This document shows, piece after piece, positions 5,611-29,551 of a stretch of DNA of 64,000 nucleotides. The notes beneath the pieces were generated by a model. The model searched no databases, was not told where the DNA came from, and saw only the letters and a program-made list of their open reading frames with translations. The position numbers were made by a program, and so were the translations under genes. Each line of letters begins with the position of its first letter. The first letter of the stretch is position 1. This DNA is from an uncultured Alphaproteobacteria bacterium (lineage in GTDB: Bacteria; Pseudomonadota; Alphaproteobacteria; Rhizobiales; Xanthobacteraceae): the NCBI GenBank assembly GCA_963703845.1, contig CAVPFQ010000025.1:105486-169485 (forward strand), in the 5' to 3' direction.

Positions 5611-8178
5611 ATGAATGTTGGAATGCGAGTCCGGGGGGGCTTGTTGGCCGCCCTGATTATGTTCGCCATGCCGGCCGCCGCGACGCTGGCAGGTTTGCTC
5701 GTGTCCTCGCCGGCCGCCGCCCAGAACGTCAATACGATCGAGGTCCAGGGTAACCGCCGCGTCGAGATCGAGACCATCCGCTCCTACTTCAAGCCTGGGC
5801 CCGGCGGAAAGCTGGATCAGGCGCAAATCGACGACGGCCTGAAGGCGCTGATCGAGACCGGCCTGTTCCAGGATGTCAGGATCAACACGGTCGGCGGCCA
5901 TCTGGTGGTGGTCGTGATCGAAAACCCGGTGATCGGCAAAGTCGCCTTCGAGGGCAACAAGAAGATCAAGGACGAGCAGCTCTCTGCCGAAGTCCAGTCC
6001 AAGCCGCGCGGCACCTTCTCGCGCCCGATGGTACAATCCGACGCCCAGCGCATCGTCGATATCTATCGCCATTCGGGCCGCTACGATGTGCGGGTCACGC
6101 CCGAAATCATCGAACAGCCGAACAACCGCGTCGACCTGGTCTTCACGATCGTCGAGGGCCAGAAGACCGGCGTCAAGGAAGTCGAATTCATCGGCAACAA
6201 GGCTTATTCGTCCTACCGCCTCAAGGACGTCATCAAGACGCACGAATCGAACCTGCTGAGCTTCCTCGGCGGCGGCGACGTCTACGACCCGGACCGGGTC
6301 GAGGCCGATCGCGACCTGATTCGCCGCTTCTATCTGAAAAATGGCTACGCCGACGTGCAGGTGGTGGCGGCGCTGACCGAGTACGATCCGGAGCGCAAGG
6401 GCTTCCTGGTGAGCTTCAAGATCGAAGAGGGCCAGCAATATCGGGTGGCGGCGGTCAATTTCGAGTCCAGCATCGCAACGCTTGACGGAAATTCGCTGAA
6501 GAGTTTCTCGCGCGTCTATGTCGGCTCGCTCTACAATGCCGAGGCGCTGGAGAAATCCGTCGAGGAAATGCAGATCGAGGCGTCGCGGCGCGGCTATGCC
6601 TTTGCGATCGTGCGCCCGCGCGGCGATCGCAACTTCGACGCCCATACCGTCACCATCACCTATGCGATCGACGAGGGGCCGCGGACCTACATCGAGCGCA
6701 TCAATATTCGCGGCAACACCCGCACCCGCGACTACGTGATCCGCCGCGAATTCGATATCTCGGAAGGCGACGCCTACAACCGCGCGCTGGTCGACCGCGC
6801 CGAGCGCCGCCTCAAGAACCTCGATTACTTCAAGACCGTGAAAATCGCGACCGAGCCGGGATCCTCCAGCGACCGCGTGATTCTGGTGGTCCAACTCGAG
6901 GAGAAATCCACCGGCGACTTCTCGGTGTCGGGCGGTTATTCGACCACCGACGGCGCGCTCGCCGAGATCAGCATTTCCGAGCGCAACTTCCTCGGGCGCG
7001 GGCTGTATGCCAAGGCAGCTGTGACCTATGGCCAGTACGCCCGCGGCCTCTCGCTGTCGTATGTCGATCCGTACCTGCTCGATTACCGCATCGCGATGGG
7101 CATCGACGTCTTCTATCGCGAGCAGCTGCCGAACAGCTATATTGCATACGGCACCAAGACCATCGGTTTCAGTCCGCGGCTCGGATTCCAGTTGCGCGAG
7201 GATCTCTCGCTGCAGGTTCGGTATTCGCTCTATCAGCAGACGGTCTCGCTGCCGAATTATCTCGCGAATTGTAACAACACCACGAACAATCCGTTGCTGG
7301 CCTTCAACCCGTCGCCGGCATGGGTGGCCGCGAATCCGACGATTGATCCTACTGGCCCCGGCTATGGGGCTACCGACGCGTCAGGTATGGGCCTGTGGTG
7401 CTACAGCGACGGCGAGGCTTCGCTGCCGATCCGCCAGGAACTGGCGCAAGGCGCCGCGCTGACGTCCTCGGTCGGCTACTCGCTGGATTACAATACGCTT
7501 GATAACAACAAGAACCCGACCGACGGTCTCTTGATCGATTGGAAGCAGGACTTCGCCGGCGTCGGCGGCGATGTGGCCTATCTGAAGAGCGCGATCGACG
7601 GCAAATACTACTCGCCGCTGGTCGCCGATATCGTCGGACTGATCCACGTCCAGGCCGGCATTCTCAACCATGTCGGCAGCAGCCAGCTGCGGATGCTCGA
7701 TCAGTTCCAGATGGGTCCGAACCTCGTGCGCGGCTTTGCTCCCAACGGCATCGGCCCGCGCGACATCAACCCCTACGGCACGATGGACGCGCTCGGCGGC
7801 ACCAAATATTGGGGTGCCTCCTACGAGCTGCAGATGCCGTTCTGGTTCCTGCCGAAGGAAGTGGGCCTGAAGGGCGCCCTCTATGCTGACGCGGGCGGCC
7901 TGTATGACTACCAGGGGCCGACCACATGGGCCGCCACCGGCGAACTCACGACGCCGGCCAATTCGAATTGTATCAAGCCGACGAACAATCCGCCTTCGCC
8001 CGGTACCTGTACCGGATTGGTGTACGACAGCGGCAATACGGTCCGCACCTCCGTCGGCGTAGGCCTGATCTGGGCGTCGCCGTTCGGACCGCTGCGCTTC
8101 GATTATGCGATCCCGTTGACCAAGGGCAAGTACGACGTTGTGCAGCAATTCAAGTTTGGCGGCGGGACATCGTTCTGA
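5611..8178 (+). CDS. bamA: Outer membrane protein assembly factor BamA
   Basis: Signal peptide, POTRA repeats, VRGF loop motif, C-terminal [11 protein letters not shown]...GTSF; start inferred at ATG 5611. Confidence 0.95.
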
Positions 8179-18358: not shown

Positions 18359-18505
18359 GGCCTGATCCCCACGTTGAATTCGGGGATCCTAGTCGCGAGG
18401 CCGCTAGTAATGGTTAACGGCCGTAGCCCATGGGCCGAGCCCCCTCTTGATAAACGGCTTCAAGTTCAGGCTTCAAGTTCCGGCCTGCCTTGGGCCGACC
18501 CATAG

Positions 18506-19539: not shown

Positions 19540-19790
19540 GCAAACTCCCCAGGCATGCAACGGGAGCATTGGCGTCAAAGCAAAATACCGTCGGCCAAGG
19601 CCCCATACCCCGCCTTCTTGGTAGGCCGAATACCCTTAAGGGAGCGTTCGGCGACATGGTAAACGCCCGGACTCCGCGCCGATGCGTGGGTAGCGTTTTC
19701 CCCCGATATTCCACATCCGTTCCACTAGCCCGGCGCCGACAGCCTACGGTAGCATTTCGACCCTGAGCATGTTGCGTGGGGTGAGGCCGG

Positions 19791-22070: not shown

Positions 22071-22175
22071 CGTCATTCCGGGGCAGCCCGCAGGGCTGAA
22101 CCTCAGATGCGCAATTGCGCATTGGGGAATCTCGAGATTCCGGGTTCGATGCTTTCGCATCGCCCCGCAATGACG
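22071..22175. repeat. REP/MITE-like palindromic element, family A
   Basis: Terminal inverted repeats cgtcattccgggg/ccccgcaatgacg, core ggaatctcgagattcc, internal palindrome atgcgcaattgcgcat. Confidence 0.8.
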
Positions 22176-23178: not shown

Positions 23179-23294
23179 GCCTGATGGTTCGAGACGCGCG
23201 GCCATGCCGCGCTCCTCACCATGAGGGGACGGAGCGGGAGCTGCCAGACCCTCATGGTGAGGAGGCGCTCTTGCGCCGTCTCGAACCATGAGGC
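23179..23294. repeat. Inverted pair of REP-like elements, family B
   Basis: atggttcgagacg...ctcctcaccatgaggg and its inverted copy ccctcatggtgaggag...cgtctcgaaccatgagg. Confidence 0.8.
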
Positions 23295-23309
23295 CGCGCC
23301 GCTCAGGAT

Positions 23310-23391
23310 CGTCATTCCGGGGCGATGCGAAGCATCGAACCCGGAATCTCGAGATTCCGGGTTCGCGTCTGCGACGCGCCCCGGAATGACG
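23310..23391. repeat. REP/MITE-like palindromic element, family A
   Basis: cgtcattccggggcg...cccggaatctcgagattccggg...cgccccggaatgacg. Confidence 0.85.
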
Positions 23392-24100: not shown

Positions 24101-24181
24101 CTCGACCAATCCCCAGTTTGATACGTGCCGTCAGACTCCGAGGTGTTCAACAGACACCAGCACTCGAAACAAATCATGAAC

Positions 24182-25478: not shown

Positions 25479-25507
25479 GGCGAAAACTCCTAAGGACTCT
25501 ATCCGCT

Positions 25508-25571
25508 GTCATTGCGAGCCAACGGGTCGGCGCAAGGCGCCGCCCGATGACAGGCTCCGCGAAGCAATCCA
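25508..25571. repeat. REP-like element, family C
   Basis: gtcattgcgagc...cgaagcaatcca; same ends as the element at 30327. Confidence 0.7.
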
Positions 25572-25580
25572 TCTTTCTTT

Positions 25581-25661
25581 CGTCATTCCGGGATGGTCCG
25601 AAGGACCAGACCCGGAATCTCGAGATTCCGGGTTCGATGCTTCGCATCGCCCCGGAATGAC
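25581..25661. repeat. REP/MITE-like palindromic element, family A
   Basis: cgtcattccggg...cccggaatctcgagattccggg...cccggaatgac. Confidence 0.85.
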
Positions 25662-25703: not shown

Positions 25704-26333
25704 CTAAATCCCGAGCGCGGCCAGCGCCTGCGCGACATCATCCGGCGACCTCACATGCACCCCGATCAGTCCCTGCGCGCGTGCGCCCGCGATATTGTCG
25801 GCGGAATCGTCGAAGAACACGATCCGCTCCGCCGGAACCCCGATCGCCCTGACCACATGATCATAGGCCGCTGCATCCGGTTTCCGCAGCCCGATCGAGG
25901 AGGAAAGAAAGACTTCGCGGAAATGGCCGAGCACATCGGCATGCAGAGCCGAGAAATGCGCGACATGGGCGTTGTTGGTATTGGAGAAGGCATAGAGCGG
26001 CAGTTTTTTCGCCGCGCGCGCCAGCGCCTGCGCGATGCCGGGCACCTCGCCGGCAAAGATCGCGTTCCACCCCTCCAGGAACTCGGCGTCGGACAGCTTT
26101 ATCCCCATCGCCGCGCACTGGCCGGCGAAATATTCCGCATCGCCGATCTCGCCCCGCTCGTGCCGATGGTTGAGCTCGCCGAGCGACAGCCGCCCGACCA
26201 GTTGTTCCGGCGCGCAAGCCGCATGACGTGCCCAACAGGAAAACGCCCTGGAAAAATCGATGTCGAGTACGACGCGGCCGAGATCGAACAGGAGCGCGTC
26301 GGCCGAGCCGGGGGAGAGTGGGGGGAGCGTCAT
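25704..26333 (-). CDS. HAD-superfamily hydrolase (YihX-like)
   Basis: LLFDLGRVV motif I, FSNTN motif II, KPD motif III, FFDD motif IV. Confidence 0.88.
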   Translation of the reverse strand: MTLPPLSPGSADALLFDLGRVVLDIDFSRAFSCWARHAACAPEQLVGRLSLGELNHRHERGEIGDAEYFAGQCAAMGIKLSDAEFLEGWNAIFAGEVPGIAQALARAAKKLPLYAFSNTNNAHVAHFSALHADVLGHFREVFLSSSIGLRKPDAAAYDHVVRAIGVPAERIVFFDDSADNIAGARAQGLIGVHVRSPDDVAQALAALGI

Positions 26334-26399
26334 GGGGGCGGTGTACGAAAATCGGGGAGAGGGGGCAACGAAATCGGCACCGCCGTCACGCACAATATT

Positions 26400-27114
26400 T
26401 CACTGGACCAAGACCGCGGTCTTCATCTTCTCATAAACCTGCAGGAGCAGTTCGGCCTGCTGGCCCTCCGACATCAGAGCCAGCGGTGTGTTTGGCGAAA
26501 TAGCCCCCTGAAACCTGGCCAACGGAGAGTCTGCGAAGGTCGACGACTTCACCGCAATCCAGAACACCAGGCAGCCTCTGTTGTTCGCCGCCTCCAATAG
26601 TTCCGGGAGTTCCTCGTTGGTGATGAACGGCGAGTTGAGGAAGTCCTGGGTGACTAGGAATACGGCAACGCGCGCCGAGCCAAGCGCCTTGCGTATTTCA
26701 ACAAGCCACTCCGCACCTGGGCGTATCTCCGTGTCATCCCAGACACAGAATCAGATTTCGGTTTTCAAGCGGCCGCAGGAACTGCCGGAGCTTCTCCAGC
26801 CACTCCGCGTCCTTGTGGCTATAGCTGATAAACACCGGTTTTGTAACGCTCACTTTCGGCGCGACGAAGTGCTGGAGATAGAGGACGCGACGAGCCGCGT
26901 CGACTTCGAAGGTCACCTCCAGCGGAGGCGAAGGATGTTTATAGAGCCGCACCTTTCCGTCCTGGCTGATCGAGCGGACTCGACCTGGGTAGGCGTCCGG
27001 ATTGTCAGCCAGCGTATCAAGCAAATCGAAAAGTATGGACAGAGCCTCCTGAGGCAGATCCTTTCGACTTTCCTTTCCGCTGTCCGAGTATTGAATCGCG
27101 TACGCCTCAGGCAT
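26400..27114 (-). CDS. RelE/ParE-like domain fused to a TIR domain (about 237 aa once one extra base near 26747 is removed)
   Basis: N-terminal YAIQYSDSGKESRKDLP...LADNP...LEVTFEVDAARRVLYL; then VFISYSHKD; after the frameshift WDDTEIRPGAEW...ARVAVFLVTQDFLNSPFITNEEL; GGAG RBS; start overlaps the upstream stop. Confidence 0.8.
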
Positions 27115-28147
27115 CGTTGGCTCCATCTGGAGACGCATGGGGGCCATTGCCTGCGAGCCTTACAGCGACGACCTGAATGCGTTGCGAGGCGTGGTCGGCG
27201 ACATACTCGATCTCGACGTGTTTGCCTTTAGTCGTGTCCGGAAGCGTCGCGCCTTCAGGGCGGGGATTTGCTTTCTCCTGCGCTTCGAGTCGCGCGCCGT
27301 TTGTACTGAGCTCCGCCACAAGGTCCCCGAGCTCGATCCGGTCCGCGACGTCCAGCGTGGCTCCCTGCTTGGAAGCATCTCGACTGAATGCGATCGCGTA
27401 GGCCTTTTGTCGAAAGGCGGCGCTTTGCAAGACAGCGTCCTTTCGATCCTTCGTGATCTGCGCGGACTCGATTATCGCGGTCTGTTCCAGGAGCTCGGCC
27501 GGAACAGAAACGACTTCGGGGCCTTCTCGCTCTTGCAGGCTCTGAAGCGCTTTCCTCAGCTGCTCGGCACTTGTCGCCAGGTCCATTCGCTCGCGCTGAT
27601 TCCGCAGATATCGAGCGCCAAATAGTAAACCGGCCGTGATCCCGTAGAACGGCAGCGCGATGAATAGACCTATCCGCTCGTCAGGTGTACGCGCGTCGAT
27701 CGCGGCTTTGCTCGCGACGACCAGGATCAAAATACCGATGCCGGGCAACAGAACGCTGCGAAGCCGGCTGATCCATCAACTCCGCCGGCTTTCCTTCCAT
27801 AGGGAGGTGGAAAGAGAACCGAGGCCGAGTCGCTTCAGCCGCCTGTCTTCGCGAAAAGTCTTGAGAAGCAGCGGAATGTTCAGCGCCAGCGAGAGCATCG
27901 CGACAAGAAAGGACACCGCGAAGACGAGTCCCAGAACCAAGGCCAGCACCCAAAGCCAGTCTCCGCTGAACGAGGCGAAAATGATGGCAAGGAAACATCC
28001 GAAGAGGCTTGCCATGGCCACATCGACGCTGACCAATAACGCGCGGTATGTAATTCTTTCGAGACGCGTTAATTGCAGCGTCTGCCCAGCACTCGAAAGT
28101 ACCTCAATGGTACGCTCGAGTTCATTCGAGGAGAGTGCGACAGCCAT
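27107..28147 (-). CDS. Four-TM membrane protein with a coiled coil and C-terminal RelE/ParE-like domain (about 346 aa through an internal TGA at 27776-27778)
   Basis: Track ORFs 27776..28309 and 27107..27748 are in the same frame and separated by one TGA; four hydrophobic segments; C-terminal KAYAIAFSRDASK...VEIEYVADHASQRIQVVAV. Confidence 0.72.
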
Positions 28148-28423
28148 GGCGCCGAGAACCAAAAATCCAAACCTAACACCCTTGCCGTTCAGACGACAGA
28201 AGTTTTCGCGTGGCGCGGGTGCGAATCTTAGCCACAACCTTGACGCCGCGTCGCCCCGGGGACGCTGACGGACAGCCGCGTCCCGCGCCCGCAGACCGGA
28301 GGTCGACACTCGCGCCCGCTATGCAGGCCTGCAAGGTGCGCTTCGGTCAAACGAAGATGAATCGTCGGTCCAACCGGATTTCCTCACTGCTCCGCGGATC
28401 GGACAAGTGCGGGCCGCTCCCCC

Positions 28424-29551
28424 TCAATACCGGTACGGCTCGATCTCCAGCAGCGGATACGCGCTGAACACGCTCGGCATATTCACCGGCGCGGCTTGAT
28501 GCAGATAGCTCTTGTCGAGCTCGGCGAATTTCGTCACCCCGAGCAGGCCGAGACAGCGCACCACTTCGTCTTCCAGCAGCTCCAGCATCCGCACGATGCC
28601 CTGCTCGCCCTTGGCAGCCAGCGCACAGCAGTGCAGCCGGCCGATGCCGACGAGGTCGGCGCCAAGCGCGATCGCTTTGACGATGTCGGTACCACGATTG
28701 ATGCCGCCGTCCACCATGATTTTGGCGCGACCCTTCACGGCGGCGACGATTTCGGGCAGCACATGCATCGAGCCGCGGCCGTGGTCGAGTTGGCGGCCCC
28801 CATGGTTGGAGACGTAAATCCAGTCGACACCGTGATCGAGCGCGATCTCCGCGTCCTCCGCGGTGGCGATGCCCTTGATCACCAGCGGTATCTTGAACTT
28901 GTCCTTGATCAGCTTCACCGTCCGCCATTCCAGCCCCTTCTGGAAGTCGCCGCCGGTGGCGCGCACGCGGCTGGCGCGGACATAGCGCTTGGCGATGTCG
29001 CGCTCGCGCCGGCTGTAATGGGCGGTATCGACGGTCAGGCAAAACGCGCTGTAGCCGCTCTTGATGGCGCGGGCGACGCGGTCCTCGACAAAGGCGTCGT
29101 CGCCGCGGACATAGAGCTGATACATCCGCAGCGCATCGGGGGCGGCTTCCGCGGTCTTCTCCAGGCCCGGCTCCGACACCGAGCTCAGCATATGCGCAGC
29201 CCCGAACGAGCCGGCGCCGCGCACTACCGCCGCGCCGCCTGCGGGATCGAACAGTTCGAGCGCGCCGACGGGGGCGATCATCACGGGAATCCGCAATTTG
29301 CGGCCGAACAGAGCGACGGAAGCGTCGACGCGGGCGACATTGCGCAGCACGCGCGGCCGGAACGCGATCTCGTCGAGCGCCAAGCGGTTGCGGCGCATCG
29401 TGGTCTCGGTCTCGGCGGCGCCGGCGATATAGTCCCAGCAATTCTGGTTGAGGTTGGCCCGCGCCCTGCTGATCAGTTCGTGCAGGTTCTGGAACTCCTC
29501 GCCGCTGGCGCCGAGTTCGATTTGCGACGGAATGCGTGGCGCCTCGTTCAT
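28424..29551 (-). CDS. FMN-dependent alpha-hydroxy acid oxidase/dehydrogenase
   Basis: IAPVG, LTVD, VIKGI, SNHGGRQLD, DGGINRGTDIVKAIALGA. Confidence 0.92.
   Translation of the reverse strand: MNEAPRIPSQIELGASGEEFQNLHELISRARANLNQNCWDYIAGAAETETTMRRNRLALDEIAFRPRVLRNVARVDASVALFGRKLRIPVMIAPVGALELFDPAGGAAVVRGAGSFGAAHMLSSVSEPGLEKTAEAAPDALRMYQLYVRGDDAFVEDRVARAIKSGYSAFCLTVDTAHYSRRERDIAKRYVRASRVRATGGDFQKGLEWRTVKLIKDKFKIPLVIKGIATAEDAEIALDHGVDWIYVSNHGGRQLDHGRGSMHVLPEIVAAVKGRAKIMVDGGINRGTDIVKAIALGADLVGIGRLHCCALAAKGEQGIVRMLELLEDEVVRCLGLLGVTKFAELDKSYLHQAAPVNMPSVFSAYPLLEIEPYRY

Follow-up and report, generated by a model that had tools for sequence, protein, structure and literature searches.

We have identified, on the minus strand of the window (the whole stretch of DNA analysed here, 64,000 nucleotides), a two-gene cassette in which a TIR domain may be docked to a membrane protein through a pair of RelE-fold domains. 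Gene B (26400..27114) combines a RelE-fold domain and a TIR domain in a protein of 237 aa once base 26747 is left out, and gene A (27107..28147) encodes the partner membrane protein, which comes to 346 aa if Arg replaces the TGA at 27776-27778. Both lesions are very probably assembly artefacts, with both proteins made. We assign a probability of about 0.6 to the explanation as a whole, namely a two-gene membrane/RelE-fold/TIR cassette with artefactual lesions and with its TIR domain docked to the membrane protein. This RelE-fold/TIR/membrane arrangement was absent from the defence-system and family libraries and from the literature searched.

Bacterial, plant and animal immunity all depend centrally on TIR domains, and the chief question that any new system raises is what keeps them inactive and what sets them off. 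The cassette, if functional, would be a compact two-gene system in which a toxin fold is reused as an adaptor or sensor.

Reading frames and the two lesions

As written in the window, gene B yields a 126-aa product and an out-of-frame remainder. On the minus strand, the first frame starts with the ATG at 27114-27112 and reads MPEAYAIQ...VFISYSHKDAEWLEKLRQFLRPLENRNLILCLG* up to a premature TGA in the shifted frame (26734..26736), and the second reads VWDDTEIRPGAEW...VLVQ* up to the TGA at 26402-26400. The first-pass annotation had proposed that removal of one base beside GAATC joins the frames into a single 237-aa protein, and this was reproduced: dropping any single base within 26742-26753 regains the 237-aa ORF, and among these positions only loss of the T at 26747 gives NLIRVWDD, as relatives read. 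The surplus base, a coding-strand T and plus-strand A, is a probable consensus error and abuts GAATC at 26748-26752 of the plus strand, which is GATTC on the coding strand, a GANTC motif. The restored product is identical to P0351, the on-record protein of a syntenic ENA contig. A database search returned 377 homologues of gene B, and the best 120 of these are 237-251 aa long (with one exception of 213 aa) and 70-95% identical over 90-100% of the query. Intact relatives of 237-243 aa number in the hundreds. With 377 homologues and the best 120 near full length, the two-domain gene B constitutes a conserved family, to which the break in the window is the exception. A programmed frameshift or other recoding signal at the break, for which the two overlapping frames speak and nothing more, was rejected as having a negligible probability, because the relatives are single-frame (the protein family and 45 of the 64 fully covered loci), near-identical strains lack the extra base, and there is no slippery sequence at the break.

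The stop of gene A overlaps the start of gene B by 8 nt (ATGCCTGA, 27107-27114), an overlap also present at other loci compared. An in-frame TGA on the minus strand (27776..27778), which is CGA (Arg) in short reads and is likewise a probable consensus error, divides gene A into ORFs of 123 and 213 aa in the same frame (177 and 213 aa in the ORF list). Metagenome contigs and the genomes of Burkholderiaceae, Nitrosomonas and Microvirga have gene A as one gene of ~350 aa, and it is a single ORF in loci L001-L004 and L007. Truncated products of 126 aa and 123 aa are on record in other assemblies; neither the 126-aa product nor P0001 had an exact match on contigs.

Both sites were compared with short reads of near-identical strains. 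Unitigs X1 (301 nt) and X2 (511 nt) lack base 26747 and otherwise equal the window, X4 differs from the window solely by a G at 27778, and both sites are intact in X7 and X8, which come from other studies. Gene B is in frame in four short-read runs (X1, X2, X7 and X8), the Arg codon of gene A is present in three (X4, X7 and X8), and neither lesion was found in any of the short-read data sets of near-identical strains. The earlier suggestion that the break be resequenced was thus apt, since base 26747 is lacking from these reads. At the TGA, the plus strand reads GACTC (27778-27782) in the reads and AACTC in the window, corresponding to a change from GAGTC to GAGTT on the coding strand. Both lesions therefore lie at GANTC, a coincidence with a probability by chance of ~3e-4. 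GANTC is the CcrM methylation motif. Consensus errors linked to GANTC and CcrM have been described in nanopore assemblies of Alphaproteobacteria, where they persist at greater depth (PMC12392509, PMC12710330). Long-read consensus errors at CcrM-methylated GANTC are the most likely origin of the two lesions.

A comparison spanning 40 kb was carried out between the window and short-read unitigs of 99.9%-identical strains. It contained 50 substitutions, 5 of which touch GANTC, and at all 5 the reads keep the motif, which the window has as AANTC or GANTT; three extra bases occur in the window, two at GANTC and one in a C homopolymer. At 26371, 30469, 31743 and 31818 the reads have GANTC and the window AANTC or GANTT, and these positions are probable methylation-linked consensus errors, since their signature is that of the stop codon in gene A. 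Position 18377 is an extra base that turns GATTC (GANTC) in the short reads into GAATTC, and position 19608 is an extra base relative to the short reads within a C homopolymer; both are intergenic, upstream of genes for a small secreted protein and an outer-membrane beta-barrel.

The lesions are not confined to the window. Both occur in L010 (a Logan contig of ERR10755948, aligned to window 26100-28700), and L009 (ENA ERZ25039470 contig_35576) carries the TGA in gene A together with an intact gene B. These occurrences argue for real private mutations, by which the cassette would be a two-hit pseudogene, perhaps a costly or toxic module that was inactivated. So do disrupted-looking copies in short-read, Illumina-era metagenome contigs, which show that cassette decay occurs and which amount to 19/64 for B and 11/43 for A in raw tblastn counts that were not de-duplicated. 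The disruptions comprise frameshifts, stops and 5' or 3' truncations, along with an internal deletion of A in L065-L068 (disrupted-looking loci: L019, L021, L034, L043, L045, L047, L051, L057, L058, L062, L064-L069, L074-L078, L080 and L082), and, if real, they indicate high turnover of the cassette. Real mutation is nonetheless an improbable source of the two lesions in the window, because both lie on GANTC and take the C>T or +T form of the other differences in the window and L010, and because the four short-read sets with B in frame and the three with Arg in A are free of either lesion.

The nature of L010 bears directly on this point. Its 8 further differences from the window are all G:C>A:T; 7/8 affect an end base (C or G) of GANTC and the eighth lies 5 nt away (P=2.5e-14). 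L010 resembles an unpolished assembly of long reads from the same population and does not count as an independent strain, since its 'SNPs' are motif artefacts. The TGA in L009 and L010 was attributed to the same systematic error, although shared ancestry would look alike. An inherited two-hit pseudogene with L009 as the intermediate was rejected on the basis of the L010 'SNPs', the location of both lesions on GANTC ends, and further short-read runs without either lesion. In L009, which is otherwise syntenic, LexA is called in two pieces (7014-7716; 185 and 54 aa), and a base is lacking at the equivalent of window 28423; indel errors in that assembly are the probable cause.

The genomic setting is consistent with consensus errors as the origin of both lesions. 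The LexA of the window shares 93% identity with its B. erythrophlei counterpart, and the host is Bradyrhizobium-like. The window holds 112 GANTC sites against 330 +/- 16 expected from shuffles, a three-fold depletion that fits a CcrM host. The low-GC cassette (26400-28300) has ~11 GANTC sites in ~1.9 kb (about 5.5 per kb), compared with 1.75 per kb for the window, a density that fits a recent foreign origin, and this richness of a foreign cassette in the motif accounts for two errors in one small island. The whole inserted island (26334..28423) lies between a HAD hydrolase and an FMN-dependent dehydrogenase and has a GC content of 55-60%, compared with 64-70% in its flanks, which fits horizontal acquisition. 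Frameshifts and stops in long-read Alphaproteobacteria assemblies can be GANTC artefacts, and foreign GANTC-rich islands are especially exposed, so that defence genes can be miscalled as pseudogenes.

Other features of the window were noted near LexA. A short dispersed repeat flanks the LexA-MoeA region (~22100-22160, 23250-23375 and 25500-25650), with a unitig depth of 57-133x against about 5x elsewhere and with contigs that join 25600 to 22100; small ORFs overlapping it encode REP-like repeated peptide motifs. In the LexA-MoeA intergenic region, X1 skips 44 nt (24117-24162), an indel polymorphism in the population.

Domain architecture of genes A and B

In the AlphaFold2 (AF2) model (pLDDT 80.5), the ~90 aa of the N-terminal domain of gene B (26851..27114, minus strand; residues 1-88) take a beta-alpha-alpha-beta-beta-beta-beta layout with elements E6-9, H11-18, H22-37, E46-48, E55-60, E65-72 and E77-84. 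The top PDB match in Foldseek was M. tuberculosis RelE2 (3g5o_B; E=4.9e-5, target TM-score 0.81, rmsd 2.5 A), and 9g12, 2khe, 1wmi and 4fxe_E (RelE1, T. thermophilus, archaeal and E. coli RelE) were also matched, with target TM-scores of 0.77-0.81 against RelE2, RelE1 and E. coli RelE. Sequence searches gave a different picture. The N-terminal 92 aa had no significant Pfam or PDB-chain match, whether queried singly or in profile form, and the profile search against the PDB returned no RelE chain. No RelE/ParE-type Pfam family matched full gene B at E<=1; ParE_toxin (PF05016) was reached by 4/22 members with a best E of 0.029, below threshold, and hhalign of the N-terminus against E. coli RelE and YoeB gave a probability of <2%. 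A RelE fold is accordingly supported for this domain at the level of fold and not of sequence, and the RelE-fold calls for both cassette domains rest on predicted structures with pTM of 0.54 and 0.47. The RelE/ParE-type fold that the first-pass annotation gave to the N-terminus is thereby supported, though not by sequence.

The catalytic residues of RelE are K52/K54, R61, R81 and Y87. The first-pass annotation had proposed that basic residues of active RelE RNases are lacking, and the data agree in part. In the gene B domain, beta-3 carries the motif L-E/Q-V-T-F/Y in place of the yRxxY of RelE, so that the canonical arginine is missing, and there is no counterpart of the C-terminal helix on which RelE carries R81 and Y87. 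Among 119 aligned members, conservation is as strong in the RelE-fold domain as in the TIR half, and R45, R56, Y58, H60, E70, D72, R75 and H82 are invariant. His60, His82, Arg45, Arg56, Arg75 and Glu70 might form an alternative active site. YoeB- and YafQ-type relatives use His/Glu/Arg sites, and this precedent, the conservation of the domain on a par with the TIR half, and the appearance of Cami1 among the Foldseek matches of the gene A domain could be read as signs that the gene B domain is an active ribosome-dependent RNase, with the TIR domain as its regulator or scaffold by analogy with Cami1. We judge this highly improbable, because the beta-3 arginine and the R81/Y87 helix are lost, the sequence shows no relationship to RelE or YoeB, and the domain always stands before a TIR domain and never as a free toxin with an antitoxin. 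The prior suggestion that the domain serves in interaction or sensing, and is not a classical toxin, agrees with what was observed, given the paralogous domain in the partner protein and the natural fusions described below; gyrase, the ribosome or a phage protein as its specific targets are speculation.

The C-terminal half of gene B (26403..26841, minus strand; residues 92-237) is a TIR_2 domain and contains the frame break. Pfam detected TIR_2 (PF13676) over residues 94-189 with E=1.3e-14 and 55.2 bits against a cut-off of 28, and PF01582 was also above threshold (22.9 vs 21.3 bits). Foldseek matched the TIR fold of the AF2 model to SARM1, SPARTA TIR-APAZ, AbTir, MAL and MyD88 with a probability of 1.00 and target TM-scores of ~0.65-0.69. 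Across the 119 aligned members, F95, S97, Y98, W125, D126, D127, G133, W136 and E168 are invariant, which bears out the C-terminal TIR_2 domain with a helix-C glutamate that had been proposed. Glu168, the putative catalytic glutamate (codon 26610..26612, minus strand), opens helix C within the motif F163-I-x-x-x-E168-L-P, and F-I-x-x-x-E-L-P is held in distant relatives and fusions as well. The canonical catalytic motif of NADase TIRs is W-x-x-x-E, with Glu at W+4. Glu168 lies at F163+5, one residue past this position, and the ungapped HMMER alignment to MAL shows the same offset. Catalytic competence of the gene B TIR domain is likely, but unproven, since the invariant E168 sits in the motif but one residue off the canonical spacing.

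The statement of the first-pass annotation that no adjacent antitoxin is visible overlooked a conserved, translationally coupled gene directly upstream, gene A, which encodes four TM helices, a stalk and a RelE-fold domain. Gene A matched no Pfam, PADLOC or NCBIfam model, and no nucleotide-binding domain was recognisable in it with these libraries. The AF2 model consists of four predicted TM helices (27608..28066, minus strand; residues ~28-180), a long helical stalk, and a C-terminal domain of beta-alpha-alpha-beta-beta-beta layout. TM2 and TM3 are joined by a conserved cytoplasmic loop, LGLxxLSxSLWKESRRSRW, and the predicted periplasmic loops are 3-10 aa long. The C-terminal domain (27143..27406, minus strand; residues ~248-335) was modelled as a RelE fold with pLDDT >90 and matched 1wmi_A in Foldseek (E=5e-4, target TM-score 0.75), as well as 4fxe_E, 3g5o, 9g12 and Cami1. 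Against the N-terminus of gene B, hhalign gave E=4e-5 and a probability of 70% over 77 columns. Judged by this alignment, the RelE-fold domains at the C-terminus of A and the N-terminus of B are paralogous.

Linkage, distribution and a possible mechanism

Gene A lies directly upstream of gene B in 56 of the 61 loci with enough upstream sequence, and gene A has a family of its own, whose 176 homologues share contigs with those of gene B. An exhaustive profile search of 1.84 billion representatives returned 104 proteins with the B type of RelE-fold domain, in all of which this domain stands immediately ahead of a TIR domain. Nearly all have the architecture of gene B, and the exceptions include A-B fusions, with the order 4TM-stalk-RelE-RelE-TIR (P0306, P0324 and P0342) or 4TM-stalk-RelE-TIR (P0259, P0328 and P0333). 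The constant linkage of A and B and these natural fusions imply that the two form one physical unit. Among distant relatives, P0271 (729 aa) has a second TIR_2 stretch and a long uncharacterised N-terminal region before its RelE-fold and TIR domains, and P0280 (1130 aa) has a kinase-like, partly low-complexity region after the TIR domain and may be a frameshifted call.

The cassette is rare, with 6 loci among 185,579 species representatives, and its occurrences come mostly from soil. Its neighbours vary by locus, there is no conserved third gene, and in the neighbourhoods compared it was not found in any recognisable defence island. No viral contig carried the cassette; matches to viral contigs covered the TIR part only, at 26-28% identity, and a phage-borne gene was rejected for this reason.

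We propose that the two paralogous RelE-fold domains pair and would thereby hold the TIR domain docked and inactive on membrane protein A, as their paralogy and the fusions suggest. Membrane perturbation, or a ligand on the conserved RelE-fold surface, could then trigger TIR clustering, and the clustered domains would cleave NAD+ or make an ADPR-derived signal. Loss of NAD+, or the signal, may lead to growth arrest in an abortive-infection type of defence, as with other bacterial TIR systems. With periplasmic loops of just 3-10 aa in the model, sensing probably falls to the membrane itself or to the RelE-fold surface in the cytoplasm. A bolder variant, in which this is a new kind of membrane-anchored bacterial TIR immune module, is doubtful. 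The RelE fold would there have been repurposed twice, on the 4-TM protein and on the TIR protein, and the pair would respond at the membrane to a phage product or to the state of ribosomes or translation and so free the TIR NADase.

In a different arrangement, gene A would be the effector, and the TIR domain of B would open it as a pore, via a nucleotide signal or directly, in the manner of the TM effectors of Thoeris or CBASS. Pairs of a TIR protein and a TM effector are known in Thoeris type II, and this precedent is joined by the four TM helices and strongly conserved cytoplasmic motifs of A and by a match of one A relative to the PADLOC '4TM effector' model, which at E=0.059 is not significant. 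We consider such a role unlikely, since A has no recognisable nucleotide-binding domain and the single-chain A-B fusions favour physical coupling over a diffusible messenger. Docking of the TIR domain on A remains our preferred reading of the pair.

Comparison with known systems

Known defence systems were rejected because PADLOC, NCBIfam and Pfam models match the TIR part alone and nothing in gene A; the best PADLOC matches, to the SAVED_TIR and ThsB1 models, cover only the TIR part of gene B (E 1e-15 to 1e-13; 8e-14 for ThsB1). No ThsA-like gene (SIR2/SLOG or Macro-TM), as expected of Thoeris, occurred in any neighbourhood examined, and no cyclase, CD-NTase or SAVED domain, as expected of CBASS or Pycsar, occurred in the cassette or in the neighbours examined. 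At the loci compared, no small antitoxin gene of the RelB, ParD, Phd or YefM type is conserved upstream or downstream. The cassette thus belongs neither to Thoeris or CBASS nor to the type II toxin-antitoxin systems. A literature search for RelE or ParE in combination with TIR returned no description of such a fusion.

RelE/ParE toxins (RelE, YoeB, HigB, YafQ and ParE) have in common with both cassette domains a beta-alpha-alpha-beta-beta-beta fold of ~85-90 aa, and target TM-scores of the two domains against RelE structures are 0.7-0.8. Unlike these toxins, the cassette domains have no significant sequence similarity to the family, lack the canonical Arg/Tyr and the C-terminal helix, and occur only in fusion, to TIR in B or to a membrane stalk in A. 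They are not filed as RelE/ParE members, for want of sequence similarity, the canonical catalytic motif and an antitoxin, and a classical RelBE/ParDE toxin-antitoxin pair was rejected because there is no antitoxin, no sequence-level membership and no free-standing form of the domain.

Cami1 (CARF-RelE), which appeared among the Foldseek matches of the gene A domain, is a precedent for a RelE fold within a larger immune protein. It is a cA4-activated, ribosome-dependent RNase of type III CRISPR. Cami1 couples a CARF sensor to an active RelE nuclease, whereas the cassette couples its RelE folds to TIR and TM helices, with no CRISPR context.

The NADase TIRs of ThsB, TIR-SAVED, TIR-APAZ, AbTir and SARM1 share with gene B the FxSYS of beta-A, the WDD...G..W motif and the helix-C Glu, and among TIRs the fold of gene B is closest to the NADase members SARM1, SPARTA and AbTir. 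Unlike those systems, the cassette has no ThsA, SAVED, APAZ/Ago or cyclase partner; it has a RelE-fold N-terminus, a 4-TM partner with a second RelE fold, and a Glu at aromatic+5.

Toll-like receptors and membrane-anchored TIRs resemble the cassette in combining a membrane anchor with a cytoplasmic TIR, which in fusions P0259 and P0324 are on one chain, and by this analogy activation through clustering at the membrane is plausible. Unlike Toll-like receptors, the cassette has four TM helices and no extracytoplasmic ligand-binding domain (loops of 3-10 aa). The likeness is thus one of topology, with homology limited to the TIR domain.
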